Assembly: GCA_039796295.1 (NCBI GenBank)
Contig: JBDKJY010000011.1
Span: forward strand, 93,157 to 157,156
DNA from: Verrucomicrobiota bacterium
GTDB lineage: Bacteria > Verrucomicrobiota > Verrucomicrobiia > Limisphaerales > SXTU01
DNA length: 64,000 nt
Reading direction: 5' to 3'
Below the pieces are notes generated by a model. That model was not told the origin of the DNA and made no database searches. It was given only the letters and a program-made list of their open reading frames with translations. This document shows, piece after piece, positions 1,545 to 18,794 of the stretch. The first letter of the stretch is position 1. Each line of letters opens with the position of its first letter. A program made the translations under genes and the position numbers.

Positions 1545-1557
1545 TCACACCGCCTTT

Positions 1558-4500
1558 ATGAAAATACACATTGTCTGCTACGAAGATGTCCACGGCTGGA
1601 TCCTCGGCAAGTTCGCCTTGAAGCTCCAGGAGCACCTCCGCCCGCTCGGCATCGCCGCCACCATTTCCAAGCAGCCCGACCCGCAAGCGGACATCAACCA
1701 CCACATCATTTACTACGACTACGATGGCCGGAAGACCACCACCGAGACCGTCATGGTCACGCACATTGACACCGACTGGAAACGCGAGCGTCTCCGCCAG
1801 CAGCTCGTCAACGCCGCGATGGGCATCTGCTGCTCGGCCGAAAGCGTGGACGCCCTCGCCGCCGCCGGTCTGCCGCGCGAAAAGCTCTGCTTCGTCAACC
1901 CCGGCCACGACGGCGAGATGCGCGCCCGCCGCACCGTCATCGGCATCACGAGCAAAGTTCAGCCCAGTGGCTGCAAACGCGAAGGCATCCTCCTCGACCT
2001 CGCTCAACGCCTCTCCCCCGATGAATTCCAGTTCCGCATCATGGGCACGGGCTGGGACGAGCACGTGAAGAACTTGCGCCTCGCCGGCTTCACCGTGGAC
2101 CACTGGAAAGCCTTCGACCGCCCGGAGTATCTCAAGCTGATGCCGAGCCTTGACTACTACCTCTACCTCGGCCTCGACGAAGGCTCGATGGGCTACATGG
2201 ACGCGCTCGCCGCTGGCGTGCAAACCATCGTCACCACGCAAGGTTTTCACCTCGACGCGCCCGGCGGCATCACGCACGGCTGGAGCGAACCCGCCGAGCT
2301 GTTCCGCATCTTCGAGAGCATCGCCCGCGAGAAACGCCTGCGTCAGCAAGCCGTCGCCAACTGGACTTGGCCCGAATACGCCAAGCGCCACTTGGCCCTC
2401 TGGCACTACCTGCTCGCCCGGCAGTCCGGCCAGTTGTTGAGCGCGTCCCTCCGCGCGCCGCTGGCCAAGATGGCCGTGCTCGTGGACAAAGGTGCCTTCG
2501 CCGAAGTGAAGTTGACCGAGGAAAGCAAGCCGGCGAAGCCATCCGATGACTCGCCGCAACGGCGTGAACTTCCCCCTGAAGTCATCCGCTCACTTCGCGC
2601 CCAGCACTCGCACTTGATGGCCGCCAATCCGGCCGCCGCTGCGACTTTCCGCAAGCAGTTCGCCAAGCAACCGCTCGACGCGGTCGTCGCGGACTTCGAC
2701 GGCGACCTAAAGTTCCGTTGCAGCCTGCACCACCACATCGGCAGCCAGATTTTCTGGCATGGCGGCTACTCGCAGGCACAGCTTCGCCTCCTGAGCCGGC
2801 TGCTCACGAGGCCGGACATGGTTTATCTCGACGCCGGCGCGAATGTTGGCGAGCAGACGGTCTTCGCCGCCAAGCGTCTTCCGCGCGGCCAGGTTTTTGC
2901 CTTCGAGCCGACCACGGAAGTTTTCCAGGTCCTCTCCGAAAACGTCCGGGCGAACGGCTTCACGCACGTCCGCGCCGAGAAGCTCGGTCTCGGCGAGCAG
3001 TCCGGCGAGCTGCCCATTTATTCGTCGCATGCCGAGGTTGCCAGCGATGGGACGGTGAACGAGGGCGTTCCGACGCTGTTCAGCTCCACCGACCGCGGCA
3101 CGGTCATCGAGCGGGTGAGGATTGTGCGCCTGGATGACTTCCTTGCGCCGCTCAACCTTCCGCGTCTGGACGTGATGAAGGTGGATGTCGAGGGCGCCGA
3201 GATGATTGTGCTCAAGGGCGCGGTGGAGACCATCAAGCGCCATCGGCCCGTGTTCATCGTCGAAGTCCACGAGGGCACCAGCCAGAGCGCCGGCCACTCC
3301 GTGCGCGAGCTGCTCCAGTTCATTCAGCGCCTGGGCTATCGCATCGAGGGCCTGCAACCTGACGGCGGAACGCGCCCCTTCACGGACAATCAACTGGCTG
3401 AGATTCGGGATGTGGTGTGCTTTCCGCTGCCGGTCGCGGCTGCGGCACTGGAGACGGATCAAACTCCCGCCATCGAAGCCGAAATCACCGCCGCGCTCGC
3501 CGTCGACCCGAACGACCGCGAAGCGCTCACCGCGCTGCTCTCCCTGCGGCTCGACCAATCACGCTGGGCCGAAGCCGCGAAGGCCGCGTTCCAACTGCTC
3601 CAGCAAACGCCGAACGAAGCGCCCATTCTCCAAGCTCTCGCCCACTGCCTTGACCAAACCGGCGAGCACGAAACCGCCGCCGCCGTGCGCGGGCGCATTG
3701 GAGCGCGGACGCCCACGTCCGCAGCACCTCCGAGTGATGAGTCGGCCAGCCACAACCCAACGCGGCCTGCGTCCCTCCCTCTCCCAGCGGGAGAGGGCCG
3801 GGGTGAGGGAGAACGCGTCCCTTCTTGCACCGTCGCCGCTCCGTCCACCGCAACGACTGCGGACGTAGGCGTCCGCGCTCCACGAGTCCTCCTCCTCGCC
3901 GATGTGCCCAACTGGATTTTCCACCGCCACTGCCAAGAGCTCACCGCCCGTCTCGGCGACGAGTTCACCTTCACCACGAAGTTCGCTGGCGAGCCGTTTA
4001 ACGAAGCCGACTACGACCTCATCTACCCGCTTGAGTTCAACCTCGTGAACCCCGCGTGCATCACCGACCCGCGCAAATACCTCACCGGCATCCGCTCCCA
4101 CTGCACCTGGCAGCGCCTCGGCTTTGAGCAAAGCATCGCCACGCTCAAGACCAACTTCGCCCACGTCCACGCCGTCTCCACGCGGTTGCAACGCATCTTC
4201 GCCCCGCACGTCCCGAGCCTCACGCTCCTCAGCCACGGCGTGGACACGAACTTCTTCACGCCCCGCGCCACGGCCACTTCACCCGCTGGCAAACTTCGCC
4301 TCGGCTGGGCCGGCAACCGCCTCTCGCCGAACAAAGGTTTCGCCGAACTCATCGCGCCGCTCGGCCAGCTTCCCGGCGTCGAACTCGTCTTCTGCGGCTA
4401 CGCCGACCGCAACCTAAACCGCGAACAGATGCGCGAGTTCTACGCCTCCGTGGACGCCGTGGTCTGCGCCTCCGACTTCGAGGGCAACAATAACTCGCTC

Positions 4501-7500
4501 CTCGAAGCCGCCGCGATGGCCCGCGCCCTCGTCACCACCGACACCGGCACGGTGCCCGAGTATCTCACCCACGGCGCGAGCGCTCTTATCGTCGAGCGCA
4601 CGCTGCCTGCTCTCACCGCCGCCGTGCTCACGTTGCGCGACCAACCGGAGCTGCGCGCAAAACTTGGCACCGCCGCTCGCGCCTCAGTCGTGGAGAAATT
4701 CTCTTGGGCGAAACTCGCCGAAGCCCACCGCGCATGGTTCCGCACCGCCCTTGCCAGCGCTGCGCCCGGCCAGCCTGACTACAACGAGATCGAGCAGCTC
4801 GCGCGGCAGGCCTTGGTCGAAAACCCGGATGGCGTGGAAGCCCTTTCGCTGCTGGCCCAAGCGCTCTTGCACCATCGCAACTTCAACGAAGCGGCGCGCG
4901 TATGCCTCCGCTTGCTCGAACTCCAACCAACCCACATCAACGCCCTCGCGATGCTGGCCAAGTGCCTATTCCAGGCCAACGAGCTCGCCGCCGCCCGCTC
5001 CACGCTGGAGCAAATCCTCGAACTCGAACCGAACAACGCAATGGCCCGGGAGAACCTCCAAGCCCTCGCGCAGCTCCAAGCCAATGGAGCGCGGACGCCC
5101 ACGTCCGCAGCCCCTGCCGACACAACGAAACCTGCTGCGGACGTAGGCGCCCGCGCTTCGCTCCCGCCGCACCTCCAGCCCGAACTCGACGCCGTCAGCG
5201 CCGCCTACGCAGCCGGCGACCTCCCTGCCGCACACGCCATCCTCCACCGAGCCTTCAAGGCGAATCCCGACTGCGACGCCCTCCGTGAGCTGGCCGCCGA
5301 GTCCACCGGCCTTGTCCGCGCTGCCTGCCCCGTGCCCGACTTCGGCGACGCCGTGAAGCCCGCGCGCTTGAACATCGCGCTGATGACCTTCAACGCGCTG
5401 GCTTACACCAAGCTCTGCCTCGCCAGCCTCCGGCAGCACAGCACCGAGGCTTACAACGTCTTCATCGTGGACAACGGCTCCACGGACGGCACGCGCGAGT
5501 GGCTCGCCGAGCAAACGGATGAAAACCTCTTCGTCGAGTTCAGCCCCGCGAACCTCGGCGTGCCCGGTGGCCGCAACCGCCTGCTCCAGCTCATCCAGCC
5601 GCACCTGCGCACCTCGGACTTCGTCATCTTCATGGACAACGACATCGAGGTGATGCCCGGTTGGGTGGAGCATTTCTCGAACTTCTTCGTCGCCAACCCG
5701 CACGTCGGAATCGCCACGGCAGTCGGCCACTACTTCAACGTGCGCGGCGACCTGCGTGAACTCGGCGCGGTGCCCGTCGGTGCGCCCACGCCAGTGGATG
5801 TGGCGTGCGGCGGTTTCGTGTGCTGGGTCCGCGCGGCTACGGCGGCGGCCGTGGGCGAGTATGATGAAAAGCTCGGCCTGTTCTGGCACGAAGATGACGA
5901 CTACACCGTCCGTGCGCTCGCGTCCGGCTGGGAAGTTTTCATCGTCCCCGGTGCTCCCGTGCTCCATCACGAGCACAAGTCCGGCGAAGCCAAACCCGGC
6001 ATCAAGGTCGGCGGCTCCCCGGCGAACCAGCGCTACCTCGCGAACAAGTGGCGCGCCCTCGGCCTGCTGGACGCGAACGGCAAACCGAAGCGGCCCAAGT
6101 CCCAAGTAGGTCAGCGCGTCTCGCCTGACCTTCAAACTAAAGTTCCCCCTCAAGCGGAGTCAGGAAGTCAGACGGACAGGCAGGATGCGCTGTCCTACTT
6201 CAAGGCGAAGCGCCCTCGCGTCACCCTCCCCATCCGCTGGGCCGCGCCGTTCTTCAATCCCACCGGTTACGCCAGCGAGGCCATCAACTTCGTCCTCCCG
6301 CTCTCGCACCAGCTCAACCTCGGCCTCTTCCACGACACCAACATCACCTCCGAGCAATTCACCGCCGAGCTGCCCGCTGCGGACCGCGACCGTTTGCTAG
6401 CTCTCCGCGACAAGTTCTTCCTCATGCGCGGCGGCGTGCTCGTCTCGCACAATCCGGCCTTCGCCTTCAAGCGCACGCCCGACGCGCTCTATCACGTCGG
6501 CCGCTCCATGTATGAGACCGACCGCATCCCCGCCGACTGGGTGACGTGCTGCAACGGCATGGACGAAGTCTGGGTGCCGAGCCAGTTCAACGTGGAGACG
6601 TTCGCCAACAGCGGCGTGCTGCGCGAGAAGCTCGTGGTCATCCCCGGCGCGGTGGATGAAAACCTCTTCGACCCCGCCAAGCACACGCCGCTGCCGCTGC
6701 CCAACGCGGCGAAGTTCAACTTTGTTTCCGTCTTCGAGTGGTCCGGGCGCAAGGCCTGGGACGTGTTGCTTGCCGCGTATCTGCGCGAGTTCTCCGCTGC
6801 CGATGACGTGTGCCTGCACCTCCGCACTTACCTCTTCGGCCACCCCGACGCCGACCCGCGCGACACGTTGGAACCGCTCATCCGCGACTTCGCGGCGAGC
6901 CTCGGGCTGGGCAACAAGGCGCTCCCGCGCATCCAGTTGCTCACTGAGCAAATCGCGACCGCCGACCTCCCGCGTCTCTACCTCGCGGCGGATTGCATCG
7001 TCGTGCCGAGTCGCGGTGAAGGCTGGGGTCGTCCGATGCATGAGGCGATGGCGATGGGCCGCCCGGTCATCGCGACCGGCTGGAGCGCGAACACGGAGTT
7101 CATGAACGCGGACAACTCCTACTTACTCGACTACGAGCTGGTGGAGGTGACCGGCGTGGAGCCGTATCTGAAACACTACCTCGGCCACCGCTGGGCGCAG
7201 CCCTCCGAGAAGCACCTCCGCGAGCTAATGCGCCGCGTGAAGGAGAACCCTTCCGAAGCCGCCGCGAAAGGCGCAAAGGCCCGCGCACACGTGACGAAAC
7301 ACTTCTCCCGCGCCGCCGTGGAGGAGAAGGTCATGCAGCGGCTGGAAGCCATTGAGCGGAAGTTCACCAAGGCGAGCTGTGAGCCGGTGTCGGCGAAAGT
7401 GCGTGTCCTTGAGCACGCGGCTGCTCTCCCTCAGCCAAGCGCGTCCTCCATCGCACTGGCCTGGTCCGGCTCCTTCCTCGACTTCGGTAGCCTCTCGCAC

Positions 7501-10500
7501 GTCAACCGCGAGCTGACGAGCGCCTTGGAAAAGCTCCCCGGCGTCCGGCTCACGCGCCTTGGCCAAAGCACGCTGAACGCTCCCAACGCGCTCGCCGGCC
7601 TCGCGCGCACGCTCAAGTCCACTGCGCCCACCGGCACCCAGGTCACCGTCCGGCATGCGTGGCCGCCGGATTGGCAACGGCCCGCGACTGGCAAGCTTGT
7701 CGTGATGCAACCGTGGGAGTTCGGCGCTTTGCCGCTCGATTGGGCGAAGCAAGCCGGCAGCGTGGACGAGTTCTGGGCTTACTCGAACTACGTCCGTCGC
7801 CTCTACCTTGCGGCCGGCGTCGCGCCCGAGAAGGTGAAAGTCATCCCGCTGGGCATTGACCCGGCGACGTTCCGACCTGACGCCAAGCCACTGCCGCTCG
7901 CGACGCGCAAGGCGTTCAAGTTCCTCTTCGTCGGCGGCACCATCTACCGCAAAGGCCCGGACGTGCTGCTGCGCGCTTACCTCGACACCTTCACCGCTGC
8001 CGACGACGTGTGTCTCGTCATCAAAGACTTCGGTGGCAACAGCGTTTACCAAGGCCAGACGCTCGGCACGCAAATCAAGGCCGCCCAAGCCCAGCCGAAC
8101 GCGCCGGAGATCCTCCACCTCACCGACGACCTGCCGCCCGAGTCGCTCCCGAGCCTCTACACCGCGTGCGATTGCCTCGTGCATCCGTATCGCGGCGAGG
8201 GCTTCGGCCTGCCTGTGCTCGAAGCAATGGCCTGCGCGCTCCCGGTTATCTGCACCGGCGGCGGCTCCACGGATGATTTCGCGACCGATGAGTTCGCGTA
8301 TCGCCTGCCCGCCGTGCGGAAGCCGATCGGCAACCGGGTCGGCAACATCGAGTTGGTCAGCGGCGGCTGGCTGTTTGAACCCGATGCGTCCGCGCTCGCT
8401 GCTCGTCTCCGGCACGTTCTTGGCAACCGCGACGAAGCCCGCGCCAAGGGCCGCGCGGCGAGCGAGTTCGCCCGCACGCAGTTCACCTGGCAACGCAGCG
8501 CGGAGGCGGTGGCCGCTTGTCTCACCGTGGAGGCCGTCCCAGCGGCAGCGGTGCCGGCCAAGCCGGAGCCGAGCCACGATCGGTCAGCGTTGCTGGTTCC
8601 CCTCGCCCCGCTCGGCCCGTCCGGTGACAGCGCGAGTGCGATGCAGAAGCCGAAGCTGAACTTCAAGCTCCCCACGGTCGCGCTCCTCGGCGACTTGTGC
8701 GCGGCGCGGGCCGCCTTGCAACGGAAGCAGTTCGTCCCGGCCTGGAGCGCCGTGCTGGACAGCTTGAAGGCGCGCCCTTTCAACCCGGACGCGTGGCTGC
8801 TGCTCGCCGAGATTGCCCGCGAAGCCGGTGACCTCCCGATGGCCACGCGGTGCGCCGAGCGCTGCCGCACGCTCGCCCCGCAGTGGCGCAGCGCGAAGAA
8901 GTTCCAGAAGACGCTGCCGACGCACGGACGCGACCCGAAGATTGCCTGGCCCGCGTTGCCCGCCGCGAGCGCCGCACCGCGCCTGTCGGTCTTCATCATC
9001 GCGAAGAACGAGGAGCGGTTCCTCGGCCAGTGCCTCGCTTCGATCAAAGGCTTGGCCGACCAACTCGTCGTCCTGGACACCGGCTCGACCGACCGCACCG
9101 TCGCTATCGCCCAGGAGCACGGCGCGGAAGTTCACCACGCTGTGTGGGAAGATGATTTCAGTGCCGCCCGGAATGCCGCGCTCGCGCACTGCACGGGCGA
9201 TTGGGTGATGTTCCTCGATGCCGATGAGGAGCTGCCGCCCGCCGAGCACGCGAAGCTGCGCGCCGACCTGCAAGCGCCCGGCGTGCTGGCCTTGCGCGTG
9301 CGGTTGCAGAACGCCGGGCTGGAGGACGACGGCTGCTGCCACGTTCCGCGCGTCTGGCGGAACGCGCCCGGCCTGTTCTTCTACGGGCGCGTCCACGAGC
9401 AGGTGTTCCCGAGCGTCCTCGTGAAGTGCGAAGCCTGGCATCTGGAAACGCGCCTCGGCACGACGACCTTGCGCCACCACGGCTACGATCCCGAGGTGGT
9501 GAAGGACCGGAACAAGATCGCGCGCAACCTCGCCTTGCTCCGCCGCGCCGTGCAGGAGCTGCCGGGCGAACTGAACTTGACCATGAACCTCGGTCTCGAG
9601 CTGGTGCGCTCCGGGCAGTTGCAGGAAGGGTTGGAACACTACCGGTTGGCCTTCAGTCAGCTCGCGGAACTGCCGAAGAAAGACATTGTGCCCGAGCTGC
9701 GCGAGTCACTCCTCACTCAATTCGTCTGCCACCTGCACACGGCGAAGCAAGTCGCCGAGCTGTTGCGCGTGCTGGAGTCGCGGACGGCGCGCGAGGGCGG
9801 GCTGACTGCCTCGATGCACTTCATGGCGGCGCTCGCCTGCCTCGAACTCAAGCGCTTCACCGACGGCGCGGAGCACGCCTGCCTCTGCCTCGCCAAGCGC
9901 CACCAACCCGTCCTCTCCCCCATCAACCGCGATATCCTGAAGGCCGGCCCGCACCATGTGCTGGCGCTGTGTCAGTGGGGCGCGCAGCAGCACGAGGAGG
10001 TGGAGCAAGCCTTCTTGAAAGCACTGGCCGAAGACGCTGGAGCGCGGGCGGCGCGTTTGGATTTCGCGCGTTGGTTGGCCGAACGCGGGCGCAAGGTGGA
10101 CGCGCTGCACTTGCTGCACAAGCTGGTGCCCGGCAGTGAGACCGAGCCGCGCGTGTGGCAGCTCGGCGCACAGATTGCGTTGAGTGAACCGGAGTTCATC
10201 GAGTTCGCCGGGGATTGGACCAGCGAGGCGGTGAGTCATCACCCGGAGAACACGGGGCTCGTGTCCTTGCGGGCCGAGGCGTTGTTGCTCGCGGGCGATG
10301 CGGAAGGAGCCATCGCGGTGATGGCACCGCTCCAGGCGGATTCGCCCACGCTCCACGCCGCGCGGCTGCTGGCCACGCTCGCCAGCGACGGCGGGTTGCC
10401 CGCCGGAGTCGCCCGGAACGAAGGGGCGGTGAGCGGTGAATTCCTGCGGTGGTATCGGCGGTTGGTGGAGTTCCGCACGAACAGCTTGCTCCTGAAGGTC

Positions 10501-10596
10501 AATGCGCGGCTGGCGGAGCTGGATAGCTTGCTGCCCACGGCGGCGCGGATATTGACCGCAGCGGTGGAGGAAGCCACGGCGGCGGAAACTCATTGA
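1558..10596 (+). CDS. Giant multidomain glycosyltransferase/methyltransferase/TPR protein (3,012 codons)
   Basis: Uninterrupted frame (ORF-track 1381..10596). First ATG at 1558 (MKIHIVCYEDVHGW), 13 nt after the upstream stop. Approximate in-frame modules:
- GT-B-like 1558-2450
- FkbM MTase 2700-3370 (YLDAGANVGE, VFAFEP, MKVDVEGAE)
- TPR 3470-3700
- GT4 3885-4745 (FEGNNNSLLEAAAMARALVTTD)
- TPR 4780-5085
- GT2 5365-6070 (FIVDNGSTDGT, DNDIEV)
- GT4 6210-7365 (PSRGEGWGRPMHEAMAMGRPVIAT)
- GT4 7445-8525 (PYRGEGFGLPVLEAMACALPVICT)
- TPR 8650-8910
- GT2 8975-9560 (SVFIIAKNEE, VLDTGSTDRT, LDADEE)
- TPR-like tail to 10593. Confidence 0.75.
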   Translation: MKIHIVCYEDVHGWILGKFALKLQEHLRPLGIAATISKQPDPQADINHHIIYYDYDGRKTTTETVMVTHIDTDWKRERLRQQLVNAAMGICCSAESVDALAAAGLPREKLCFVNPGHDGEMRARRTVIGITSKVQPSGCKREGILLDLAQRLSPDEFQFRIMGTGWDEHVKNLRLAGFTVDHWKAFDRPEYLKLMPSLDYYLYLGLDEGSMGYMDALAAGVQTIVTTQGFHLDAPGGITHGWSEPAELFRIFESIAREKRLRQQAVANWTWPEYAKRHLALWHYLLARQSGQLLSASLRAPLAKMAVLVDKGAFAEVKLTEESKPAKPSDDSPQRRELPPEVIRSLRAQHSHLMAANPAAAATFRKQFAKQPLDAVVADFDGDLKFRCSLHHHIGSQIFWHGGYSQAQLRLLSRLLTRPDMVYLDAGANVGEQTVFAAKRLPRGQVFAFEPTTEVFQVLSENVRANGFTHVRAEKLGLGEQSGELPIYSSHAEVASDGTVNEGVPTLFSSTDRGTVIERVRIVRLDDFLAPLNLPRLDVMKVDVEGAEMIVLKGAVETIKRHRPVFIVEVHEGTSQSAGHSVRELLQFIQRLGYRIEGLQPDGGTRPFTDNQLAEIRDVVCFPLPVAAAALETDQTPAIEAEITAALAVDPNDREALTALLSLRLDQSRWAEAAKAAFQLLQQTPNEAPILQALAHCLDQTGEHETAAAVRGRIGARTPTSAAPPSDESASHNPTRPASLPLPAGEGRGEGERVPSCTVAAPSTATTADVGVRAPRVLLLADVPNWIFHRHCQELTARLGDEFTFTTKFAGEPFNEADYDLIYPLEFNLVNPACITDPRKYLTGIRSHCTWQRLGFEQSIATLKTNFAHVHAVSTRLQRIFAPHVPSLTLLSHGVDTNFFTPRATATSPAGKLRLGWAGNRLSPNKGFAELIAPLGQLPGVELVFCGYADRNLNREQMREFYASVDAVVCASDFEGNNNSLLEAAAMARALVTTDTGTVPEYLTHGASALIVERTLPALTAAVLTLRDQPELRAKLGTAARASVVEKFSWAKLAEAHRAWFRTALASAAPGQPDYNEIEQLARQALVENPDGVEALSLLAQALLHHRNFNEAARVCLRLLELQPTHINALAMLAKCLFQANELAAARSTLEQILELEPNNAMARENLQALAQLQANGARTPTSAAPADTTKPAADVGARASLPPHLQPELDAVSAAYAAGDLPAAHAILHRAFKANPDCDALRELAAESTGLVRAACPVPDFGDAVKPARLNIALMTFNALAYTKLCLASLRQHSTEAYNVFIVDNGSTDGTREWLAEQTDENLFVEFSPANLGVPGGRNRLLQLIQPHLRTSDFVIFMDNDIEVMPGWVEHFSNFFVANPHVGIATAVGHYFNVRGDLRELGAVPVGAPTPVDVACGGFVCWVRAATAAAVGEYDEKLGLFWHEDDDYTVRALASGWEVFIVPGAPVLHHEHKSGEAKPGIKVGGSPANQRYLANKWRALGLLDANGKPKRPKSQVGQRVSPDLQTKVPPQAESGSQTDRQDALSYFKAKRPRVTLPIRWAAPFFNPTGYASEAINFVLPLSHQLNLGLFHDTNITSEQFTAELPAADRDRLLALRDKFFLMRGGVLVSHNPAFAFKRTPDALYHVGRSMYETDRIPADWVTCCNGMDEVWVPSQFNVETFANSGVLREKLVVIPGAVDENLFDPAKHTPLPLPNAAKFNFVSVFEWSGRKAWDVLLAAYLREFSAADDVCLHLRTYLFGHPDADPRDTLEPLIRDFAASLGLGNKALPRIQLLTEQIATADLPRLYLAADCIVVPSRGEGWGRPMHEAMAMGRPVIATGWSANTEFMNADNSYLLDYELVEVTGVEPYLKHYLGHRWAQPSEKHLRELMRRVKENPSEAAAKGAKARAHVTKHFSRAAVEEKVMQRLEAIERKFTKASCEPVSAKVRVLEHAAALPQPSASSIALAWSGSFLDFGSLSHVNRELTSALEKLPGVRLTRLGQSTLNAPNALAGLARTLKSTAPTGTQVTVRHAWPPDWQRPATGKLVVMQPWEFGALPLDWAKQAGSVDEFWAYSNYVRRLYLAAGVAPEKVKVIPLGIDPATFRPDAKPLPLATRKAFKFLFVGGTIYRKGPDVLLRAYLDTFTAADDVCLVIKDFGGNSVYQGQTLGTQIKAAQAQPNAPEILHLTDDLPPESLPSLYTACDCLVHPYRGEGFGLPVLEAMACALPVICTGGGSTDDFATDEFAYRLPAVRKPIGNRVGNIELVSGGWLFEPDASALAARLRHVLGNRDEARAKGRAASEFARTQFTWQRSAEAVAACLTVEAVPAAAVPAKPEPSHDRSALLVPLAPLGPSGDSASAMQKPKLNFKLPTVALLGDLCAARAALQRKQFVPAWSAVLDSLKARPFNPDAWLLLAEIAREAGDLPMATRCAERCRTLAPQWRSAKKFQKTLPTHGRDPKIAWPALPAASAAPRLSVFIIAKNEERFLGQCLASIKGLADQLVVLDTGSTDRTVAIAQEHGAEVHHAVWEDDFSAARNAALAHCTGDWVMFLDADEELPPAEHAKLRADLQAPGVLALRVRLQNAGLEDDGCCHVPRVWRNAPGLFFYGRVHEQVFPSVLVKCEAWHLETRLGTTTLRHHGYDPEVVKDRNKIARNLALLRRAVQELPGELNLTMNLGLELVRSGQLQEGLEHYRLAFSQLAELPKKDIVPELRESLLTQFVCHLHTAKQVAELLRVLESRTAREGGLTASMHFMAALACLELKRFTDGAEHACLCLAKRHQPVLSPINRDILKAGPHHVLALCQWGAQQHEEVEQAFLKALAEDAGARAARLDFARWLAERGRKVDALHLLHKLVPGSETEPRVWQLGAQIALSEPEFIEFAGDWTSEAVSHHPENTGLVSLRAEALLLAGDAEGAIAVMAPLQADSPTLHAARLLATLASDGGLPAGVARNEGAVSGEFLRWYRRLVEFRTNSLLLKVNARLAELDSLLPTAARILTAAVEEATAAETH
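3700..3881. repeat. MITE-like palindromic element with 25-bp terminal inverted repeats, in frame inside the giant ORF
   Basis: GGAGCGCGGACGCCCACGTCCGCAG (3700-3724) versus reverse complement of 3857-3881, 24/25 match. Interior carries a 9-bp-stem hairpin CCCTCTCCC-AGC-GGGAGAGGG (3777-3797). A 20-nt core (3789-3808) is identical, in inverted orientation, to 42609-42628. Confidence 0.8.
5086..5159. repeat. Short copy of the same TIR hairpin element, in frame inside the giant ORF
   Basis: Left arm 5086-5110 is identical to 3700-3724. Right arm 5135-5159 pairs 22/25. 24-nt loop. Encodes GARTPTSAAP...ADVGARA, mirroring the peptide at the first copy. Confidence 0.8.
6104..6200. repeat. Candidate third palindrome-bounded element in a giant-ORF linker
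   Basis: AAGTAGGTCAGCGC (6104-6117) versus reverse complement of GCGCTGTCCTACTT (6187-6200), 13/14. Inner stems AGGTCAG/CTGACCT and GGACAG/CTGTCC. Locally AT-richer. Sits between the GT2 and GT4 modules. Confidence 0.45.
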
Positions 10597-10612: not shown

Positions 10613-13177
10613 ATGAACGGCCCTACAAAGGAGCAAAACCGGCGCGTGCTGGTGGTGGACGATGATCCGCTGGTCCACGTCATCATGCGGCGCGTGCTCA
10701 CGCAGCCGCCGCCCGTCTCCAAGAAGGCCGAGGATAACTTCCCGCCGTTTGTCGTCACCGACGCGATGTGTGGCGAGGAGGCGGAGCAGCTCACGCGGAA
10801 GGCGGAGGATGCGGGCCTGCCCTTCGCCTTGGCCTTCGTGGACATGTATATGCCGGGGATGGACGGCCAGCAGACCTTGAGCCGGCTCTGGCACATCTCG
10901 CCGGAGCTGCAGGCGGTGGTGTGCACGGGCGCGGCGGACCAGGCGCTGACGCAACTGCTCGCGCGGTTCGGCAACACGGACCAGCTCATCATTCTCAAAA
11001 AGCCGTTCGAGATCCTCGAAGTGCTCCAGCTCGCCAATGCGATGACCTCGAAGTGGCGGAACTTTGTCGCGCTGCAAGGGCACCTGGCGGGGTTGGAGAA
11101 CTGCGTCTTCGAGCGCACGGAGGACGCGCGGCGGGCGCTCGAAAAGGTGAAGTGGGAACTGGAGGAGCGGCGCAAATCCGAGACGCAGTTGCGGCGCAGT
11201 GAGGAGTTGCTCCGGCTCATCACGGACAACGCCGCCGACCTCATTGCCGTGGTGGATGCGCACGGCCAGCGCCTCTACAACAGCCCTTCCTATCGCACTG
11301 TCCTCGGCTACTCGCAGGCGGATCTCAACAGCTCAGACTCGCTCGCCCAGGTGCATCCTGAGGACCGCGAGCGCGTGACGGCGGCGGCCCGCGAGGCCAT
11401 CGAGTCGGGCGGCTCCAACCGGGTGGAGTATCGGATGCGGCATAAGGACGGGACGTGGCGCATCCTGGAGTCCACCGGCTCGGCCATCCGCAACGAACGC
11501 AGCGAGGTGGAAAAGCTCGTGCTCGTGGCGCGCGATGTCACGGAGCGCAAGCAGGTCGAAGCCATCGCGCGGGAGAACGAGGAGCGGCTCGGCTCGCTCA
11601 TCGCGAACATTCCCGGTGCGGTCTATCGCTGCACGCCGTTGCCGGAGCGGCGGATGGAGTTCGTGAGCGAGTTGATTTGGGAGCTGTCCGGTTTTCCCAG
11701 CACGGACTTTCTGGAGGATCGCACCCAGACGTTTGCTTCCATCACGCACCCGGAGGACTTGCCGCAGGTGCTGGCGGCGCTTCAGGAAGGGGTGAGCCGC
11801 CGCCAGCCTTACGTGGCTGATTACCGCGTGGTGCGCTTCGACGGCACGTTGCGTTGGGTGCATGAGAAAGGGCAGGCGGTCTTCGACCCGGCGGGCAACG
11901 TGCGCTGGCTGGACGGCGTCATCTTCGACATCACTGAGCGCAAGCAGCAGGAGGAGGAGATGCGCCGGATGCACACGGAGACGGAGAAGCTCTTCGCCTC
12001 CATTTCTGCCGTGTTGATCGGCGTGGATGTGGCGGGGCGCGTCGCGCGGTGGAACGCGGCGGCGGAGCAGACCTTCAGCTTCACAGCGGAGGAAGTGCTG
12101 GGGCGGCCGTTTCACGCGCTGCCGCTCGGGTGGGATTGGGAGAAGCTGTTGACCGTCGTGAGCGAGGCGGTGCACACGGACCGGCATCTGGAGCTGGATA
12201 ACTTCCAGTGCCAGCCCGCCACGGGGCGGCACATTTCCCTGAACTTGAGCGTCACGCCGAGCAAGCCGGACCTGGAGAACCGGCTGAAATACATCCTCCT
12301 CGCCGTGGACACGACGCAGCGGCGCGAGTTGGAGACGCAGCTCCGGCAGGCGCAGAAGCTGGAGTCCATCGGCCAGCTTGCCGCCGGCATCGCGCACGAA
12401 ATCAACACGCCGACGCAATACATCGGCGACAACTTGCGCTTCCTCCAAGACGCCTTCCGCGACCTCGGGAAGCTGCTGAACGCGCACGGGGCGTTGCTCG
12501 CTGCCACGAAGAGCGGCGGGGTGACGGCGGAGGTGATCGCGGACGCCGAGGCGGCGGCGGAGACGGCGGACGTGGAGGATTTGCAGGGCGAAATTCCACG
12601 GGCGATTGGCGAATCCCTGTCCGGTGTGGAGCGCGTCGCGACGATTGTGCGGGCGATGAAGGACTTCTCGCATCCCGGCTCGGAGGACAAGACGCCGGTG
12701 GATTTGAACCGTGCCATCGAGAGCACCATCACCGTGGCGCGCAATGAGTGGAAGTATCTGGCCGACTTGGAGACGGACTTTGACACAACTTTGCCGCCGG
12801 TGCCGTGTCTGCCCGGAGAGTTTAACCAGGCGGTGCTCAACCTCATCGTCAACGCCGCGCACGCCATTGCGGCCAAGGTCGGGGACGGCGCGGGCGGCAA
12901 GGGCGTCATCACCGTGCGGACGCGCAAGGACGGCGACTGGGCAGACGTGCGCATCCGCGACTCCGGCACGGGCATTCCGGAGGCGGCGCGGGCGCGCATC
13001 TTCGAGCCATTCTTCACGACGAAGGAAGTGGGCAAGGGCACGGGGCAGGGCTTGGCCATCGCGCGGTCGGTGGTGGTGGACAAGCATGGCGGGACCATCA
13101 CGTTTGAGACCGAGACCGGGCAGGGCACCACGTTCATCGTGCGGCTGCCGCTGACGGTGGGGAAGGGGAACAACTAG
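10613..13177 (+). CDS. Cytoplasmic sensor histidine kinase with N-terminal receiver (REC, coiled coil, 3x PAS, HisKA, HATPase_c)
   Basis: REC: [26 protein letters not shown]. Three PAS blocks, each ending ..D(V/I)TERKQ. H-box [13 protein letters not shown] boxes [25 protein letters not shown]. Confidence 0.85.
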
Positions 13178-13184
13178 GACTCGC

Positions 13185-14399
13185 ATGAAGAAACGGGTGC
13201 TGTTCGTGGATGACGAGACGATGGTGCTGCAAGGCTTGCAGCGCATGTTGCGCCCGATGCGCAACGACTGGGACATGGAGTTTGTCGAGTCGGGGACCGT
13301 GGCGCTGGAGCGGATGGCGGCGGCGCCGGCGGACGTGGTGGTTTCGGATATGCGCATGCCGGGGATGAACGGCGCGCAGCTCCTCTCCGAGGTGATGCGG
13401 CGTTTTCCGAAGACAGTGCGTATCATTCTGTCCGGCCACGCGGACCATGACCTGGTGCTCAAGGCGGTTGGCTCGACGCACCAGTATTTGCACAAGCCCT
13501 GTGAGCCCGAGATCCTCAAGGCGACGGTGCAGCGCGCGGTGGCGTTGGGCGACTCGCTGGACAACGAGCAGGTGAAAGCGCTCGTGTCGCAGATGAGCCG
13601 GCTGCCGAGCTTGCCGACGGTTTACCTGCGGGTGGTGGAGGAGCTGCAATCCGCTGATGCCTCGCTGGCGCGGGTGGGCGAGGTCATTGCGCAGGACGTG
13701 GGCATGAGTGCGCAGGTATTGAAGCTGGTGAACTCGGCATTCTTCGGGTTGCGGCGGCGAGTGGCGAACGCGTCCGACGCCGTGAACTACCTCGGCCTCG
13801 ACACCATCAAGGCGCTGGTGCTCTCGCTGCACACGTTCTCCCAATACGAATGCGCGGACCTGGGTGGCATCTCGATGGTCGCGCTGCGGAACCACAGTTT
13901 GCTGACCGCCGCGTGCGCCCGGCACATTGCGCGGATGGAGGGTGCGGAGGCGAAGATCCTGGATGAGGCGTTCATCGGCGGGTTGCTCCACGACGCGGGG
14001 AAGCTGGTGCTCGCCGCGAACTTCAGCGGGCCTTACGCGCGCGCGATGAAGCTCACCCGGGATGGGGGCCTGACCTTCACGGCGGCGGAGCGCGGCGTCT
14101 TTGGCTGCACGCACGCGGACGTGGGCGGTTACTTGTTGGGCTTGTGGGGCTTGCCGGTGCCGGTGGTCGAGTGCGTCTCGTATCACCATCACCCGAGCCG
14201 CACGCTGGAGAATGCGTTCAGCCCGCTCACGGCGGTCCATGCGGCGAACGTGCTGGCTTACGAGTTGGACAAGGAGGCGGTCGCAGGCAAACGCGCGGGG
14301 TTCGATCACGACTATCTGCTGCGCGTGGGCAAGGCCGGTCGGGTCGCGGCCTGGCAGGAGGATTGCCGCCTGAACGTGCAGCCGGGAGGTGGCGTGTGA
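13185..14399 (+). CDS. Response regulator, REC + HDOD domain
   Basis: VLFVDDE..VVVSDMRMPGMNG..YLHKPC, then HDOD-like LPSLPTVYLRVVEEL...LKLVNSAFFGL...GGLLHDAGKLVL. Confidence 0.8.
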   Translation: MKKRVLFVDDETMVLQGLQRMLRPMRNDWDMEFVESGTVALERMAAAPADVVVSDMRMPGMNGAQLLSEVMRRFPKTVRIILSGHADHDLVLKAVGSTHQYLHKPCEPEILKATVQRAVALGDSLDNEQVKALVSQMSRLPSLPTVYLRVVEELQSADASLARVGEVIAQDVGMSAQVLKLVNSAFFGLRRRVANASDAVNYLGLDTIKALVLSLHTFSQYECADLGGISMVALRNHSLLTAACARHIARMEGAEAKILDEAFIGGLLHDAGKLVLAANFSGPYARAMKLTRDGGLTFTAAERGVFGCTHADVGGYLLGLWGLPVPVVECVSYHHHPSRTLENAFSPLTAVHAANVLAYELDKEAVAGKRAGFDHDYLLRVGKAGRVAAWQEDCRLNVQPGGGV

Positions 14400-15529
14400 C
14401 GGAGAAGATTCTCTGCGTGGACGACGAGGCCAATGTGCTCGCCGGCTTCCAGCGGAACTTGCGCCGGCGTTTTCAACTGGAGACTGCTCAGGGCGGTGAA
14501 GCGGCGCTGGCGATGCTGGAGCAGAGCGGGCCGTTCGCCGTGGTCGTGTCCGACATGCGGATGCCCAATGTGTCCGGCTTGCAACTGCTGCGGCAGGTGA
14601 AGGCGCGCTGGCCGGAGACTGTGCGCCTGATGCTCACCGGCAACGCCGATCAGCAAACCGCGATGGACGCGGTGAACGAGGGCAGCATCTTCCGCTTCCT
14701 CACCAAGCCGTGTCCCCCGGAGACGCTCGGGGCCGCGCTCACCGCTGCGCTGGAGCAACACCGGCTCATCACCGCCGAGCGCGAGTTGCTGGAGAACACG
14801 CTCAACGGCAGCGTGCGCGCGCTCACGGAAATCCTTTCCCTACTCGCTCCGGAGACGTTTGGGCGCGGTCAGGTGGTGCGCGAACAGATGCGCGCCGTGG
14901 CGGTGACGCTGGGGTTGCCCAATGTCTGGGAGCTGGAGATGGCGGCGATGCTGCACGGCTTGGGCCAGGTCATGCTGCCGACGGAGGTGGCCGGTCGCGC
15001 GCGGCGCGGCGCGGCGCTCTCAGCGGCGGAGGAGACGATGGTGCGGAGCGTGCCGGAGGCGGGTAGCAACTTGCTGGCGCACATTCCACGGCTGCAACAG
15101 GTCGCGCGCATGGTGCTGTTTCAGAACAAGCACTTTGACGGCACCGGCTATCCCATGGACACGCCCGGCGGCGAGGAGATTCCCCCCGGCGCGCGGTTGC
15201 TCAAGGTGCTGCTGGACCTGGGGCAGCTTGAGGTGCGCGGCAGCTCGCGGCGCGAGGCGCTGGCGCAGATGCGCGAGCGGGCCGGGCATTACGACCCGCA
15301 GCTGTTGGATGCCGTCGCCGTCGTGGTCGGCGCGGGCGGGCAGAAGCCCACGACGGGCATTGCCTTCAAGGACTTGAAGCCCGGGCATGTGCTGGTCTCG
15401 GATGTCCTCACCTCGCAGAACTTGCTCATCATCGCCGCTGGCAATCGCGTCTCGCCCAGCCTGCTGGAACGACTGCGCAACTTCGCCGCGTTGTCCGGCG
15501 TGAAGGAACCCATCTATGTCGAAGCCTGA
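14396..15529 (+). CDS. Response regulator, REC + degenerate HD-GYP domain
   Basis: GTG at 14396 overlaps the upstream TGA (GTGTGA). REC: ILCVDDE..VVVSDMRMPNVSG..FLTKPC. Output domain keeps FDGTGYP and EEIPPGARL but has LHGLGQ in place of LHDIGK. Other His/Asp ligands are not visible. Confidence 0.75.
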   Translation: MTEKILCVDDEANVLAGFQRNLRRRFQLETAQGGEAALAMLEQSGPFAVVVSDMRMPNVSGLQLLRQVKARWPETVRLMLTGNADQQTAMDAVNEGSIFRFLTKPCPPETLGAALTAALEQHRLITAERELLENTLNGSVRALTEILSLLAPETFGRGQVVREQMRAVAVTLGLPNVWELEMAAMLHGLGQVMLPTEVAGRARRGAALSAAEETMVRSVPEAGSNLLAHIPRLQQVARMVLFQNKHFDGTGYPMDTPGGEEIPPGARLLKVLLDLGQLEVRGSSRREALAQMRERAGHYDPQLLDAVAVVVGAGGQKPTTGIAFKDLKPGHVLVSDVLTSQNLLIIAAGNRVSPSLLERLRNFAALSGVKEPIYVEA

Positions 15530-16457
15530 GAAGCCGAGTCACCGCGCCCTTTTGCATTATCTGGAACTCGCCGATCCCGCCAAGCGCTGGCCGCGCGATC
15601 GCATGTTGGAAGTATTCGAAGCGGGCGACAGCTTCCCCTCCTTCTCCGCCGCCGTGCTGAAGCTGACGCGACTGGCGAAAGACGAAGCGGTGGGCATGGA
15701 TGAACTGGCCGACCTCATCAGCAAAGAGCCAGGCCTCGCCACCAACTGCATCCGTGCGGCCTCGACCTCGCGGTTTGGCCGGGGCGTGGTCCGCAGCGTG
15801 CGGGGCGCGGCCTTGCGGCTGGGCACGCAGGAGATCTCGCGCGTGGCCTGCTCACTCGGCGTGATGGACCGCTTCAACCACCTCCGGGTGACGGTGGACT
15901 GGCAGCGGTTCTGGCTGCACAGCCTGCTGGTGGCGCGGATCTCGGACCAGATCGCCGCCGCGTTCCGGCAGTCCACAGGGATGGAGTATCTGGCGGGCCT
16001 ACTGCACGACGCGGGCAAGCTGCTCATCGAGCATTACCTGTCCCGCGAATATGAAACCGTGCTGGAGCGGGCTTGGAGTCACAAACGAGGGCACTTCATC
16101 GCCGAGCGCGAAGTGCTGGCCATTGACCACGCGCAGATTGGCGCAGCGCTCTGCCACTGTCTCCAGGTCCATCCTCAAGTGCGCGCCGCCGTGTGGTTTC
16201 ACCACGACCCGACGAACCCGCGCCTGCTCCAGATGGCGGGCGGCGATAAGGGTTTCCTCGCGGCGGTCGTGGGCTTCGCGGACGTGCTCGCGCATAAGGC
16301 GAGTGAAACCCTCGGCCACGAGCGCAGGACGGACACGCCCTACGACGAGCTGCCGGAGTGGCGACAGTTGATCGAGTTCGATCCGATCCACGGTCTGGAA
16401 CTCGACACGGAGAACGACCTGGCGGCGGCGGAAGCGGACTTGAAGGCGTTCACCTAA
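15516..16457 (+). CDS. Stand-alone HDOD domain protein
   Basis: ATG 15516 overlaps the upstream gene by 14 nt. FPSFSAAVLKLTRLAKDE...LISKEPGLATNCIRAAST...GLLHDAGKLLIEHY. Confidence 0.75.
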   Translation: MSKPEKPSHRALLHYLELADPAKRWPRDRMLEVFEAGDSFPSFSAAVLKLTRLAKDEAVGMDELADLISKEPGLATNCIRAASTSRFGRGVVRSVRGAALRLGTQEISRVACSLGVMDRFNHLRVTVDWQRFWLHSLLVARISDQIAAAFRQSTGMEYLAGLLHDAGKLLIEHYLSREYETVLERAWSHKRGHFIAEREVLAIDHAQIGAALCHCLQVHPQVRAAVWFHHDPTNPRLLQMAGGDKGFLAAVVGFADVLAHKASETLGHERRTDTPYDELPEWRQLIEFDPIHGLELDTENDLAAAEADLKAFT

Positions 16458-16497: not shown

Positions 16498-16790
16498 TCA
16501 CGGCACCACCATTTGCCCCACCTCACTCGCCGCGCTCTCCCTCGCGTGGTTCACCGCCGTGATGAACACCTTCACCGCCGCCCCACTCGGCAAGCCCTCC
16601 AGCGTGAAGTCACTATCCACCGGCGAGCCCACCGCCACCGGCACCGCGTCCACGCCCACGACCGTCACTGCCGTGGTCAGCGTCACCTACGCCGCCTTGG
16701 CCGTGGCGAAGTTGTGGACGGGCGATTGGTTAAAGAAGTCCGCGGGCGGCGTCAGCGGCTTTGATGTAAATGTTTCGGAAATGCCGCTGC
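16498..16790 (-). pseudogene. Possible decayed fibronectin-III-like fragment with in-frame TAG
   Basis: Minus-strand reading ..PLTPPADFFNQSPVHNFATAKAA*VTLTTAVTVVGVD..FTLEGLPSGAAVKVFITAVNHARESAASEV. The tail resembles an FN3 C-terminal strand pattern. Stop at 16687-16689 splits it. No convincing start. Confidence 0.25.
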
Positions 16791-16829
16791 GGTAGGGGCG
16801 CAGGTGGTCTTGGCACGGCCGATCCGGGG

Positions 16830-18794
16830 CTAACTTCGGAGCAGTGCTTGGTGAACGGCCTTGAGTAGTTCGTCGGCGGTGTAGGGCTTGTAGAGGGGCT
16901 GGGTGATGCCGAGCTGGTGCAGGGCTTCGATGCGTTGGTCGGTGCTCAGGCCGGTCGAGGCGAGGATCTGGAGGCTCGGGGACATTTTGCGCAGCACGCG
17001 CACCAGGGCCAGTCCGTCCATCACCGGCATGTCCACGTCGGTGAGGACCAGTTTGATTTCGGCAATCCGGGTGGAAAACAGCGCGAGAGCTTGGGCACCT
17101 TCGCCCGCGACGATCACGCGATAGCCGTGGCGCTCCAGCATCTTGCGGGTCGCCGTGCGCACGCTCTCTTCGTCGTCCACGACCAGGATGGCCTCGCCGG
17201 CACCATGGGGTGACGGGGCCGGGGCGGTCAGCGCGTCCGCCGGGCGGGCGTCGGGCAGCGCGGGCAGGTAGATGCTGAAGGCGGTGCCGCGGCCCGGTTC
17301 GGTGTCGAGTTCGATGAAGCCACCGTGCGACTTCACGATGCCGACGACGGTGGAGAGGCCCAGCCCGGTGCCTTTGCCGACTTCTTTGGTGGTGAAGAAG
17401 GGGTCGAAAATCTTGTCGCGAATCTCGCGCGGGATGCCGGTGCCGGTGTCCTGCACGCGGAGGAGGATGTGGGGGAGCGGCTTGGCCTTGATGTTCATCG
17501 CGGCGTATTGCTCGTCGAGCACGAGGTTTTGCGCGGAGAAACAGAGCTCCCCGCCGTTGGGCATCGCGTCGCGCGCGTTCACCGCCAAGTTGAGGAGCAC
17601 TTGATGTATTTGGGTCGGGTCGCCTAGGACGGACCACAAGTCATCGGGCACGATCGTCCGCAAGCGAATGCTGCGTGGGAACGTTTCCCGGGCGATCTTG
17701 AGCGTGTCTTGAATGAGGTAACGCACCGTGACGGGGATGCGCTCACCTTCGACACCGCGGCCAAAGGTGAGGAGTTGCCGGATGATGCTCGCGCCGCGCT
17801 GGGCGCTGTTCTCGATGGTGGCGACGATCTCGTTGACCTCGCCCTCGGTGAGTTTGCACCGCAGCAGCGGCACGGAAATGATGATGGGGGCGAGGATGTT
17901 GTTGAGGTCGTGGGCCAAGCCGCTGGCCAGGGTGCCCACGCCCTCCATGCGCTGGGCGCGGAGGAACTGGGCTTCGAGGCGTTTGCGCTCGGTGAGGTCG
18001 GTGTTGATGATGAGGGCGGCCTTGGGCAGGCCGTGGGCATCGCGCACGAGCGTCCAACGGCTCATGACGGTGATGTCCGTGCCGGTGCGGGATTTCTGCC
18101 GGAGTTCCCCGCTCCACTCGCTGCGCGTCTGGAGACTCAGTTCGATCTCCATGAGCTTGTCCGCGTCGTCGTGCGTGAGGTTGGCGGTGGGTTGGCCCTT
18201 GGCTTCGCTAGCGGTCCAGCCGTAGAGGCGTTCCGCGCCACGGTTCCAGAACGCGGTGCGGCCGTTGGGCGCGCGCACCATGATGGCGTCGCCGGCGAGG
18301 TTCAGCAGTTCGGCCTGCTCGCGAATGGATTCCTCGGCCAGCTTCTGTTCGGTGACATCCCAGAACACGCCTTCCACGCCGACCACGCGGCCGTAGGGGT
18401 CGAAGAGCGGCACCTTGACGGTTTGGATGAAGCGCCGGGAGCCGTCCGACCGGCAGTAATCCTCGGTGGCTTCGAGCTTCTGGCCGGAGCGCATGACCTG
18501 CTGGTCGCCGACCTGATAGGCCTGAGCCAAGGCGGCGGGGAAGAGGTCGAAGTCCGTCTTGCCGAGGAGTTCCTCCACATCGCGCCCTAGGTTTTCGCAC
18601 AATAGTTGGTTGGCGTAGGTGAAACGGCCCTGCGGATCCTTGCGGAAGACGAAGTGCGGCAGGTTGTCCACCATCGCATGGTAGAACGCTTCGGCGGAGC
18701 GGGAATGGCCGTTGGGCGGCGGTGGCCCGGCGGTCGCCACGGGGGCACTGCCGTCCGACAGGCGGGGGAGAAAGGTTGTGGGTTCGTGGCTCAT
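16830..18794 (-). CDS. Hybrid histidine kinase (2x PAS, HisKA, HATPase_c, C-terminal REC)
   Basis: H-box ASGLAHDLNNILAPI. DTGTGIP, GKGTGLGLS. C-terminal REC ILVVDDEESV..LTDVDMPVMDG. No TM segment. Confidence 0.85.
   Translation of the reverse strand: MSHEPTTFLPRLSDGSAPVATAGPPPPNGHSRSAEAFYHAMVDNLPHFVFRKDPQGRFTYANQLLCENLGRDVEELLGKTDFDLFPAALAQAYQVGDQQVMRSGQKLEATEDYCRSDGSRRFIQTVKVPLFDPYGRVVGVEGVFWDVTEQKLAEESIREQAELLNLAGDAIMVRAPNGRTAFWNRGAERLYGWTASEAKGQPTANLTHDDADKLMEIELSLQTRSEWSGELRQKSRTGTDITVMSRWTLVRDAHGLPKAALIINTDLTERKRLEAQFLRAQRMEGVGTLASGLAHDLNNILAPIIISVPLLRCKLTEGEVNEIVATIENSAQRGASIIRQLLTFGRGVEGERIPVTVRYLIQDTLKIARETFPRSIRLRTIVPDDLWSVLGDPTQIHQVLLNLAVNARDAMPNGGELCFSAQNLVLDEQYAAMNIKAKPLPHILLRVQDTGTGIPREIRDKIFDPFFTTKEVGKGTGLGLSTVVGIVKSHGGFIELDTEPGRGTAFSIYLPALPDARPADALTAPAPSPHGAGEAILVVDDEESVRTATRKMLERHGYRVIVAGEGAQALALFSTRIAEIKLVLTDVDMPVMDGLALVRVLRKMSPSLQILASTGLSTDQRIEALHQLGITQPLYKPYTADELLKAVHQALLRS

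Follow-up and report, generated by a model that had tools for sequence, protein, structure and literature searches.

The HDOD domain is among the commonest output domains of bacterial signalling proteins and has no agreed function. Regulators with a degenerate HD-GYP domain are, to our knowledge, known from only a few cases. Both kinds of domain lie side by side in the window analysed here, a stretch of 64,000 nucleotides from a Verrucomicrobiota bacterium (GenBank assembly GCA_039796295.1, contig JBDKJY010000011.1, positions 93,157 to 157,156 of the forward strand). Four adjacent genes at positions 10613-16457, called g1 to g4 below, encode a sensor histidine kinase, a response regulator with a receiver (REC) and an HDOD domain, a response regulator with a receiver and a degenerate HD-GYP domain, and a stand-alone HDOD protein. 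The reading that we favour, and hold to be moderately probable, is that of a branched kinase cassette in which g3 acts via protein contacts, and g2 and g4 are metal-binding HDOD proteins.

Three described proteins stand closest to g3. HnoD of Shewanella oneidensis consists of a receiver and a degenerate HD-GYP domain, performs no hydrolysis, and inhibits another cyclic di-GMP (c-di-GMP) enzyme (bioRxiv 10.1101/2021.11.05.467447). NosR carries HG-GTP motifs and is phosphorylated by a neighbouring kinase, and an action by protein contact has been proposed for it (PMC12570481). DvhD of Desulfovibrio vulgaris (PDB 9RBZ, 9RC0) is a metal-free degenerate HD-GYP protein and a high-affinity c-di-GMP receptor with stalk helices that move when the ligand binds (PMC13090378).

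Among HDOD proteins, the structure 3HC1 has two Fe held by five His and one Asp, most of which are absent from the adaptor SadB (PMC12075610). SadB works as a proteolysis adaptor and does not need the pocket (PMC12075610). DVU0330, a REC-HDOD protein with HD residues, showed weak Mn-dependent hydrolysis of bis(p-nitrophenyl) phosphate (bis-pNPP) and none of c-di-GMP, and GsmR, a REC-HDOD protein without the conserved His, is cited in the same paper as having no enzyme activity (PMC4114195).

Gene cluster

The cluster comprises the following genes.

10613-13177, + strand: g1, soluble sensor histidine kinase of 854 residues, REC-PAS3-kinase (Pfam, NCBIfam, motif positions)
13185-14399, + strand: g2, response regulator REC-HDOD of 404 residues (Pfam, AlphaFold2 (AF2) model, structural match)
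14396-15529, + strand: g3, response regulator of 377 residues with REC and degenerate HD-GYP (Pfam, alignments, AF2, Foldseek, family motifs)
15516-16457, + strand: g4, stand-alone HDOD protein of 313 residues, a lineage-specific accessory gene (Pfam, PDB match)

This order and architecture had been given in an earlier reading of the DNA (the original prediction), and are borne out by the open reading frames (ORFs) and by Pfam and NCBIfam. Two of the junctions given there are also correct, namely the 7-nucleotide spacer between the TAG stop of g1 (13175-13177) and the ATG of g2 (13185), and the 14-nucleotide overlap between the ATG of g4 (15516) and the stop of g3 (15527-15529). The g2/g3 overlap had been given as GTGTGA, which is the local hexamer; the GTG start of g3 (14396-14398) and the TGA stop of g2 (14397-14399) overlap by the four nucleotides GTGA. 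A longer in-frame start of g3 at 14144 was ruled out, since the orthologues all begin with MTEK or MNEK, corresponding to the GTG at 14396.

The G+C content at the third (0.79-0.89) and second (0.42-0.50) codon positions of g1 to g4 fits real genes in a genome of 65% G+C, and independent gene calls on two metagenome contigs yield the identical four-gene set. No terminator-like sites were found on the + strand within the cluster. By their layout the genes form a predicted operon-like unit, whose transcript may also include the giant glycosyltransferase gene that precedes it. Membrane segments were searched for with 19-residue Kyte-Doolittle windows and none was found in any of the four proteins (highest mean 1.74, with one window, in g1, above 1.6), which agrees with the cytoplasmic topology proposed before. 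Likewise, Pfam and NCBIfam gave no DNA-binding, GGDEF or EAL output. Intact catalytic HD-GYP residues and a hidden effector domain had been named as findings that would speak against the original prediction. The catalytic ligands are absent from g3, and a Pfam search at E<=10 on the tails of g2, g3 and g4 and on the insert in the dimerization and histidine phosphotransfer (DHp) region of the kinase gave nothing meaningful.

Degenerate HD-GYP domain of g3

The receiver of g3 (residues 5-115) has Asp53 and, further, D9/D10, T81 and K104, all invariant or nearly so in 73 relatives. It is followed by an HD_5 domain at residues 142-303, which scores 129.7 bits against a cut-off of 27.2 (Pfam PF13487). 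The AF2 model has a predicted local distance difference test score (pLDDT) of 91.9 and, receiver matches aside, its best Foldseek folds are DvhD (9RBZ) and PA4781 (4R8Z), with target template modelling (TM) scores of 0.72-0.75. When g3 is aligned to the catalytic HD-GYP proteins V-cGAP3 (5Z7C), PA4781 (4R8Z) and PmGH (4MCW), plus 9RBZ, the metal ligands are found replaced: the first His by R157, the HD dyad by H187-G188 (nucleotides 14951-14968), and HHE by Q243-N244-K245. The GYP motif is retained as DGTGYP (residues 248-253), within QNKHFDGTGYP (nucleotides 15122-15154), for which the canonical form is HHExxDGxGYP.

The same state is found throughout the family. The dyad Asp is present in 0 of the 73 relatives taken from genomes, in which the pair most often reads SQ and HG is confined to the genus of the window. 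The output part without the receiver was also searched against 1.84 billion cluster representatives (50% identity clusters), giving 873 clusters at E<=1e-30 and 3,820 at E<=1e-10. The 119 best full-length representatives all lack an HD dyad and share the signature Q-x-K-x-x-D-G-x-G-hydrophobic-P, and across the family the GYP motif reads DGxG(F/Y/other)P. In this second set Asp stands at the HD position in 0 of 120 sequences, so that the dyad is missing from all of the ~190 relatives covered. This family-wide ligand loss, together with strong conservation elsewhere in the domain, points to a member of the RpfG class that was inactivated long ago and is still under selection. Judged by its residues, the HD-GYP domain of g3 is a dead enzyme, and the loss is ancient and family-wide.

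The C-terminal tail of g3 (residues ~315-377) is conserved and beta-rich. A tail of this type is also carried by a catalytic-looking REC-HD-GYP paralogue on contig C4, so that the tail belongs to this regulator subfamily. It may resemble DUF3391; Pfam gave no match.

Two side observations concern the g3 family. In the cluster representatives P0151 (1004 residues), P0195 (966 residues) and P0126 (583 residues), five, three and two separate stretches, respectively, match the output part of g3, and these proteins appear to be tandem degenerate HD-GYP-like modules. A g3 homologue with 38% identity in another genome (G027, locus L024, 9975-11123) has neither g1 nor g2 adjoining, and its receiver no longer contains the acidic pair or the acceptor Asp (LLLDLQGG, VVVCNCDS), which makes it a pseudo-receiver form of this regulator.

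Instead of acting by protein contacts, g3 could be a metal-free receptor of c-di-GMP, or of cyclic GMP-AMP (cGAMP), of the DvhD type, with binding gated by phosphorylation and altering dimerisation. DvhD (9RBZ), crystallised with c-di-GMP, is the closest solved HD-GYP protein by both sequence and fold, and its SQ dyad is the commonest one in the g3 family (PMC13090378). Its bridging-site Pro567 aligns with the near-invariant P195 of g3 and its clamp Leu577 with L208, and R286 of g3 aligns with R653, which was mutated in DvhD. However, among the canonical-site contacts of DvhD (Y523, L577, K582, Y621, M646, R650, Y652, E668) g3 keeps L208 (L577) and Y252 (Y621) and differs at the equivalents of the other six, positions at which the family also varies, and this contact mapping rests on a pairwise alignment of low identity (22-24%). 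The genome, moreover, has no match to PilZ and very few c-di-GMP enzymes were found in it. Cyclic-dinucleotide sensing by g3, as raised in the original prediction, is possible by analogy with DvhD, but only two to three of the eight contacts are kept; we regard such a receptor as decidedly unlikely.

HDOD domains of g2 and g4

The receiver of g2 occupies residues 5-115, with Asp55, and its HDOD domain residues 140-337, at 185.1 bits against a cut-off of 22.9 (Pfam PF08668); the Pfam HD model is also above its cut-off. The ligand residues are H237, H269-D270 (LLHDAGK, nucleotides 13983-14003), H310 and H334-H335. The AF2 model (pLDDT 90.2) has as its best structural match 3HC1, the di-iron HDOD protein. 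In the case of g4, the HDOD domain at residues 41-232 scores 121 bits against the same cut-off and the HD model 30.5 bits, and the best PDB sequence match is again 3HC1 (E=4e-18), with H135, H164-D165, H205 and H229-H230 aligned. Both domains thus carry the complete 3HC1-type two-metal ligand set, with metal binding predicted. In the g2 family (n=54), each of the six ligands is retained in 74-91% of sequences, and the other HDOD genes inspected in this genome all keep the HD and HH motifs.

A recent origin of g4 by duplication of the HDOD part of g2 was ruled out, the two being just 24% identical. No fusion of HD_5 to HDOD was found among the 120 best g2 relatives, and g2 metal-site integrity set against the DGxGxP motif of g3 gave counts of 22/16/7/9, with no clear association.

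The original prediction saw all three outputs as non-catalytic adaptors or cyclic-dinucleotide sensors, in a module that merely modulates partner proteins. This holds for g3, with its HD-GYP ligands lost, and finds parallels in SadB, the pocket-independent proteolysis adaptor (PMC12075610), and in the REC-HDOD protein GsmR, which PMC4114195 cites as devoid of enzyme activity. However, GsmR lacks the His ligands and SadB most of them, whereas g2, g4 and most of the g2 family keep all six, and DVU0330, with the same residues, has weak Mn-dependent phosphodiesterase activity (PMC4114195). On the residues present, the label "non-catalytic" is not supported for g2 and g4, and we consider it unlikely that it applies to the whole module.

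Kinase g1 and the three receivers

The N-terminal receiver of g1 (residues 12-138) scores 38 bits against a cut-off of 30.2 (Pfam) and has its acceptor Asp in FVDMYMP (nucleotides 10835-10855). The protein also matches Pfam PAS_3 and HATPase_c, and TIGR00229 (NCBIfam) marks three PAS stretches at residues ~194-570. The DHp H-box is AHEINTP (nucleotides 12392-12412), and HATPase_c, at residues 737-848, has the N, G1 and G2 boxes. With these motifs g1 is predicted to be a competent soluble kinase. That it begins with a receiver was noticed in the original prediction, and D, T and K are all present in this receiver.

In each of the receivers of g1, g2 and g3 the phosphorylation residues are intact, with an acidic pair, an acceptor Asp, a Thr/Ser and a Lys. 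Those of g2 and g3 are 44% identical, and the g1 receiver is 31-37% identical to both. By sequence, the g2 and g3 receivers are paralogues and stand apart from that of the kinase.

Chemotaxis systems offer established examples of branched pathways in which a receiver serves as a sink. On that model, and with receivers that are close paralogues, either g2 or g3 might chiefly drain phosphate and so tune the kinetics of its partner, and a single output domain would matter. A pure sink would need no output domain, yet purifying selection on both is clear across phyla, many positions outside the receivers being invariant; this reading is highly improbable.

Distribution of the cassette

Conservation was compared at two levels, with genes in the related loci called by a simple ORF heuristic. 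At the level of the order, 41 genomes were covered. The series g1-g2-g3 with a clear g3 orthologue was found in 8 of the 20 genomes of the window's genus and in about 5 of 21 other families. Across phyla, full-length g3 homologues of 35-56% identity were taken from a collection of species-representative genomes. A REC-HDOD gene lies directly upstream on the same strand in 42 of 66 g3 homologue loci, mostly overlapping by 1-14 nucleotides, and a kinase core 45-70% identical to g1 lies directly before that in 31 of those 42 loci (31/66). The hosts of g3 homologues belong to Verrucomicrobiota, Planctomycetota, Acidobacteriota, Desulfobacterota, Alpha- and Gammaproteobacteria, Gemmatimonadota, Myxococcota and Chloroflexota. 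As judged from gene order and homology, g1-g2-g3 is a widespread three-gene cassette of at least eight phyla.

Synteny of the whole four-gene block had been suggested before. It stands for g1-g2-g3 and fails for g4, which only the nearest relatives within the genus have, one of them (G002) with a broken copy. In this copy (locus L013, 3248-3996), residues 1-88 and 149-313 are in different frames and ~60 residues are missing, so that this is either a decaying gene or an assembly error of the metagenome-assembled genome. In another genome of the genus (G016), a stand-alone HDOD gene (L018, 5434-6132) that shares 25% identity with g4 precedes g1 and does not follow g3. Accessory HDOD genes seem, from these positions, to join the cassette repeatedly and at different places. 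The copy in the window is set apart by three features: the receiver of the kinase, the extra HDOD gene, and its site behind a flagellin-glycosylation island.

The prevalent short overlap of g2-type and g3-type genes across phyla led us to consider that REC-HDOD and REC-degenerate-HD-GYP could be an obligate enzyme-pseudoenzyme pair, in which the dead regulator switches the di-iron HDOD site on or off, and this site would hydrolyse or sense some small molecule. We rate this proposal as quite improbable. If it were true, it would be the first defined biochemical role for HDOD and a new kind of two-component output.

Genomic neighbourhood

The cluster is flanked within the window by two large genes.

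1381-10596, + strand: giant glycosyltransferase fusion of 3,071 codons, with GT1/GT4 and GT2 modules, an FkbM methyltransferase and TPR blocks (Pfam)
16830-18794, - strand: hybrid histidine kinase of 654 residues, PAS-PAS-HisKA-HATPase-REC, convergent with g4 (Pfam)

The giant glycosyltransferase ORF ends 16 nucleotides before the start of g1. The adjacency of the hybrid kinase is kept at 79-91% identity in four relatives. Glycosyltransferase upstream and hybrid kinase downstream are conserved within the genus only, and two same-genus genomes (G016 and G011) have the cassette without a glycosyltransferase beside it. Between the converging g4 and hybrid kinase genes, metagenome gene callers placed an ORF of 77 codons (16562-16795), which has no family match.

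A flagellar island occupies the 17 kb immediately upstream of the window (locus L108, G000:C11:76000-93000), with the following genes in the coordinates of that locus.

2270-3700: FlgK
3717-4652: FlgL-like protein
4710-5651: Hpt-domain protein of 313 residues (G000:C11:80.7-81.6 kb)
6342-7193: stand-alone HDOD protein
7488-8372: HDOD fragment joined to a CheX phosphatase domain
8474-9322, - strand: second stand-alone HDOD protein
10861-11664: flagellin, followed by a glycosyltransferase-methyltransferase fusion, a C-methyltransferase and a DegT aminotransferase

The inventory of the genome is 7 HDOD, 2 GGDEF, 1 EAL, 2 HD_5 and 11 Hpt domains. In the second HD_5 protein, which also has a receiver (G000:C4:93.1-94.8 kb, L110), the motifs HD, HHE and GYP are all intact, and an HDOD gene is found 4 kb away. 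The sole EAL domain is in a REC-PAS-GGDEF-EAL protein (G000:C4:64.8-66.9 kb, L109).

These surroundings would suit a lineage-specific flagellar regulator, which, with the HDOD, CheX and Hpt proteins of the island, would govern how the giant glycosyltransferase modifies flagellin, or the expression or function of flagellar genes. The short distance from the glycosyltransferase to g1 and the keeping of this adjacency in same-genus relatives fit such a role, as do FlgK, the FlgL-like protein, flagellin, the sugar enzymes, Hpt, the CheX fusion and two HDOD genes just upstream; the HDOD proteins GsmR and SadB, moreover, affect flagellar genes and motility. On the other hand, the cassette lacks recurrent flagellar neighbours in other phyla, G016 and G011 carry it with no glycosyltransferase adjoining, and adjacency is no proof of a functional link. 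Such a dedicated role appears somewhat unlikely.

Proposed signalling scheme

In the branched cassette that we favour, the cytoplasmic PAS kinase g1, gated by its own N-terminal receiver, would phosphorylate both g2 and g3. Phosphorylated g3 would hydrolyse nothing and would bind and regulate another protein, by analogy with HnoD and NosR; candidate partners are the REC-PAS-GGDEF-EAL protein, the catalytic-looking REC-HD-GYP protein, or g2 and g4 themselves. The HDOD pockets of g2 and g4 would bind metal and may either hydrolyse a phosphoester or sense the state of a metal, of redox or of a small ligand. Judging by the neighbouring genes, what the output affects in this lineage is probably flagellar motility or the glycosylation of flagellin. 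The receiver of g1 might take input from another kinase, conceivably from the adjacent hybrid kinase through the Hpt protein.

Several observations weigh against this scheme. About 20% of the g2 family have lost the metal ligands, so that the cassette can do without the pocket; counted by single ligands, about 30% lack at least one of the six, mostly with the HD dyad included. No consistent partner gene was found beside the cassette in other phyla, and its neighbours are heterogeneous: extra receivers are the commonest (12/81) and the sole recurrent item, and no flagellar or effector family recurs, so that a link to motility is local at best. With 11 Hpt domains in the genome, the relay into the g1 receiver is weak and one option among many. 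The likeness to NosR also has its limits, as the best-scoring named NCBIfam model for g3 is that of NosR (NF053512), at 250.6 bits and below its cut-off of 400, and as the nosRPK operon includes the sensor NosP (FIST), whereas no FIST domain is found at the window locus.

Comparison with known systems

No description of a cassette of kinase, REC-HDOD and REC-degenerate-HD-GYP was found in the literature searched. Compared with the RpfG family, g3 has the receiver residues, the HD-GYP fold and the GYP motif, and lacks the metal ligands H...HD...H...HH...D.

HnoD (SO_2541), which works in the H-NOX/HnoK network of S. oneidensis, resembles g3 in having a receiver and an HD-GYP domain with both HD and HHE degenerate, and it is one among several receivers fed by one kinase, as is proposed for g3; this likeness is one of architecture. 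However, neither an H-NOX gene nor an HnoK-type, H-NOX-associated kinase is present at the window locus, and the partner is REC-EAL there and REC-HDOD here. HnoD inhibits its REC-EAL phosphodiesterase by direct contact, and the single candidate for such a target in this genome is the REC-PAS-GGDEF-EAL protein. The H-NOX genes of this genome are on contig C1 and the sole FIST match is on contig C22, both away from g1-g4. NosR of Burkholderia pseudomallei (nosRPK) also has a receiver and a degenerate HD-GYP domain, with HG in place of HD, and a neighbouring kinase. It differs in having GTP where g3 keeps GYP, and nosRPK is without an HDOD partner gene. DvhD shares with g3 the degenerate HD-GYP fold and with the g3 family the SQ-type dyad. 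Unlike g3, it is a membrane dCache-PAS receptor and no response regulator, and g3 keeps only a minority of its nucleotide contacts.

The REC-HDOD architecture of g2 is that of DVU0330 (D. vulgaris), GsmR (Xanthomonas campestris) and MmoQ (Methylococcus capsulatus), and the MmoQ chains (PDB 3LJX, 3P3Q) match by sequence. In contrast to g2, none of the three is described with a degenerate HD-GYP regulator as its partner. The stand-alone HDOD protein 3HC1 of Geobacter sulfurreducens has all five His and the Asp aligned and kept in g2 and g4; unlike g2, it has no receiver, and it is a structural-genomics entry.

The place of the window cassette behind the flagellin-glycosylation island suggests a phenotype. 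Cultivable carriers of the cassette exist, including Sedimenticola selenatireducens, Paramagnetospirillum caucaseum, Stieleria marina, Thalassospira and Pararhodospirillum oryzae, so that both domains are open to functional study in the laboratory. The parts individually have known analogues, g3 in HnoD, NosR and DvhD, and g2 and g4 in DVU0330, GsmR, MmoQ, SadB and 3HC1; the cassette pairs an HDOD with a degenerate HD-GYP domain under one kinase, in many phyla.

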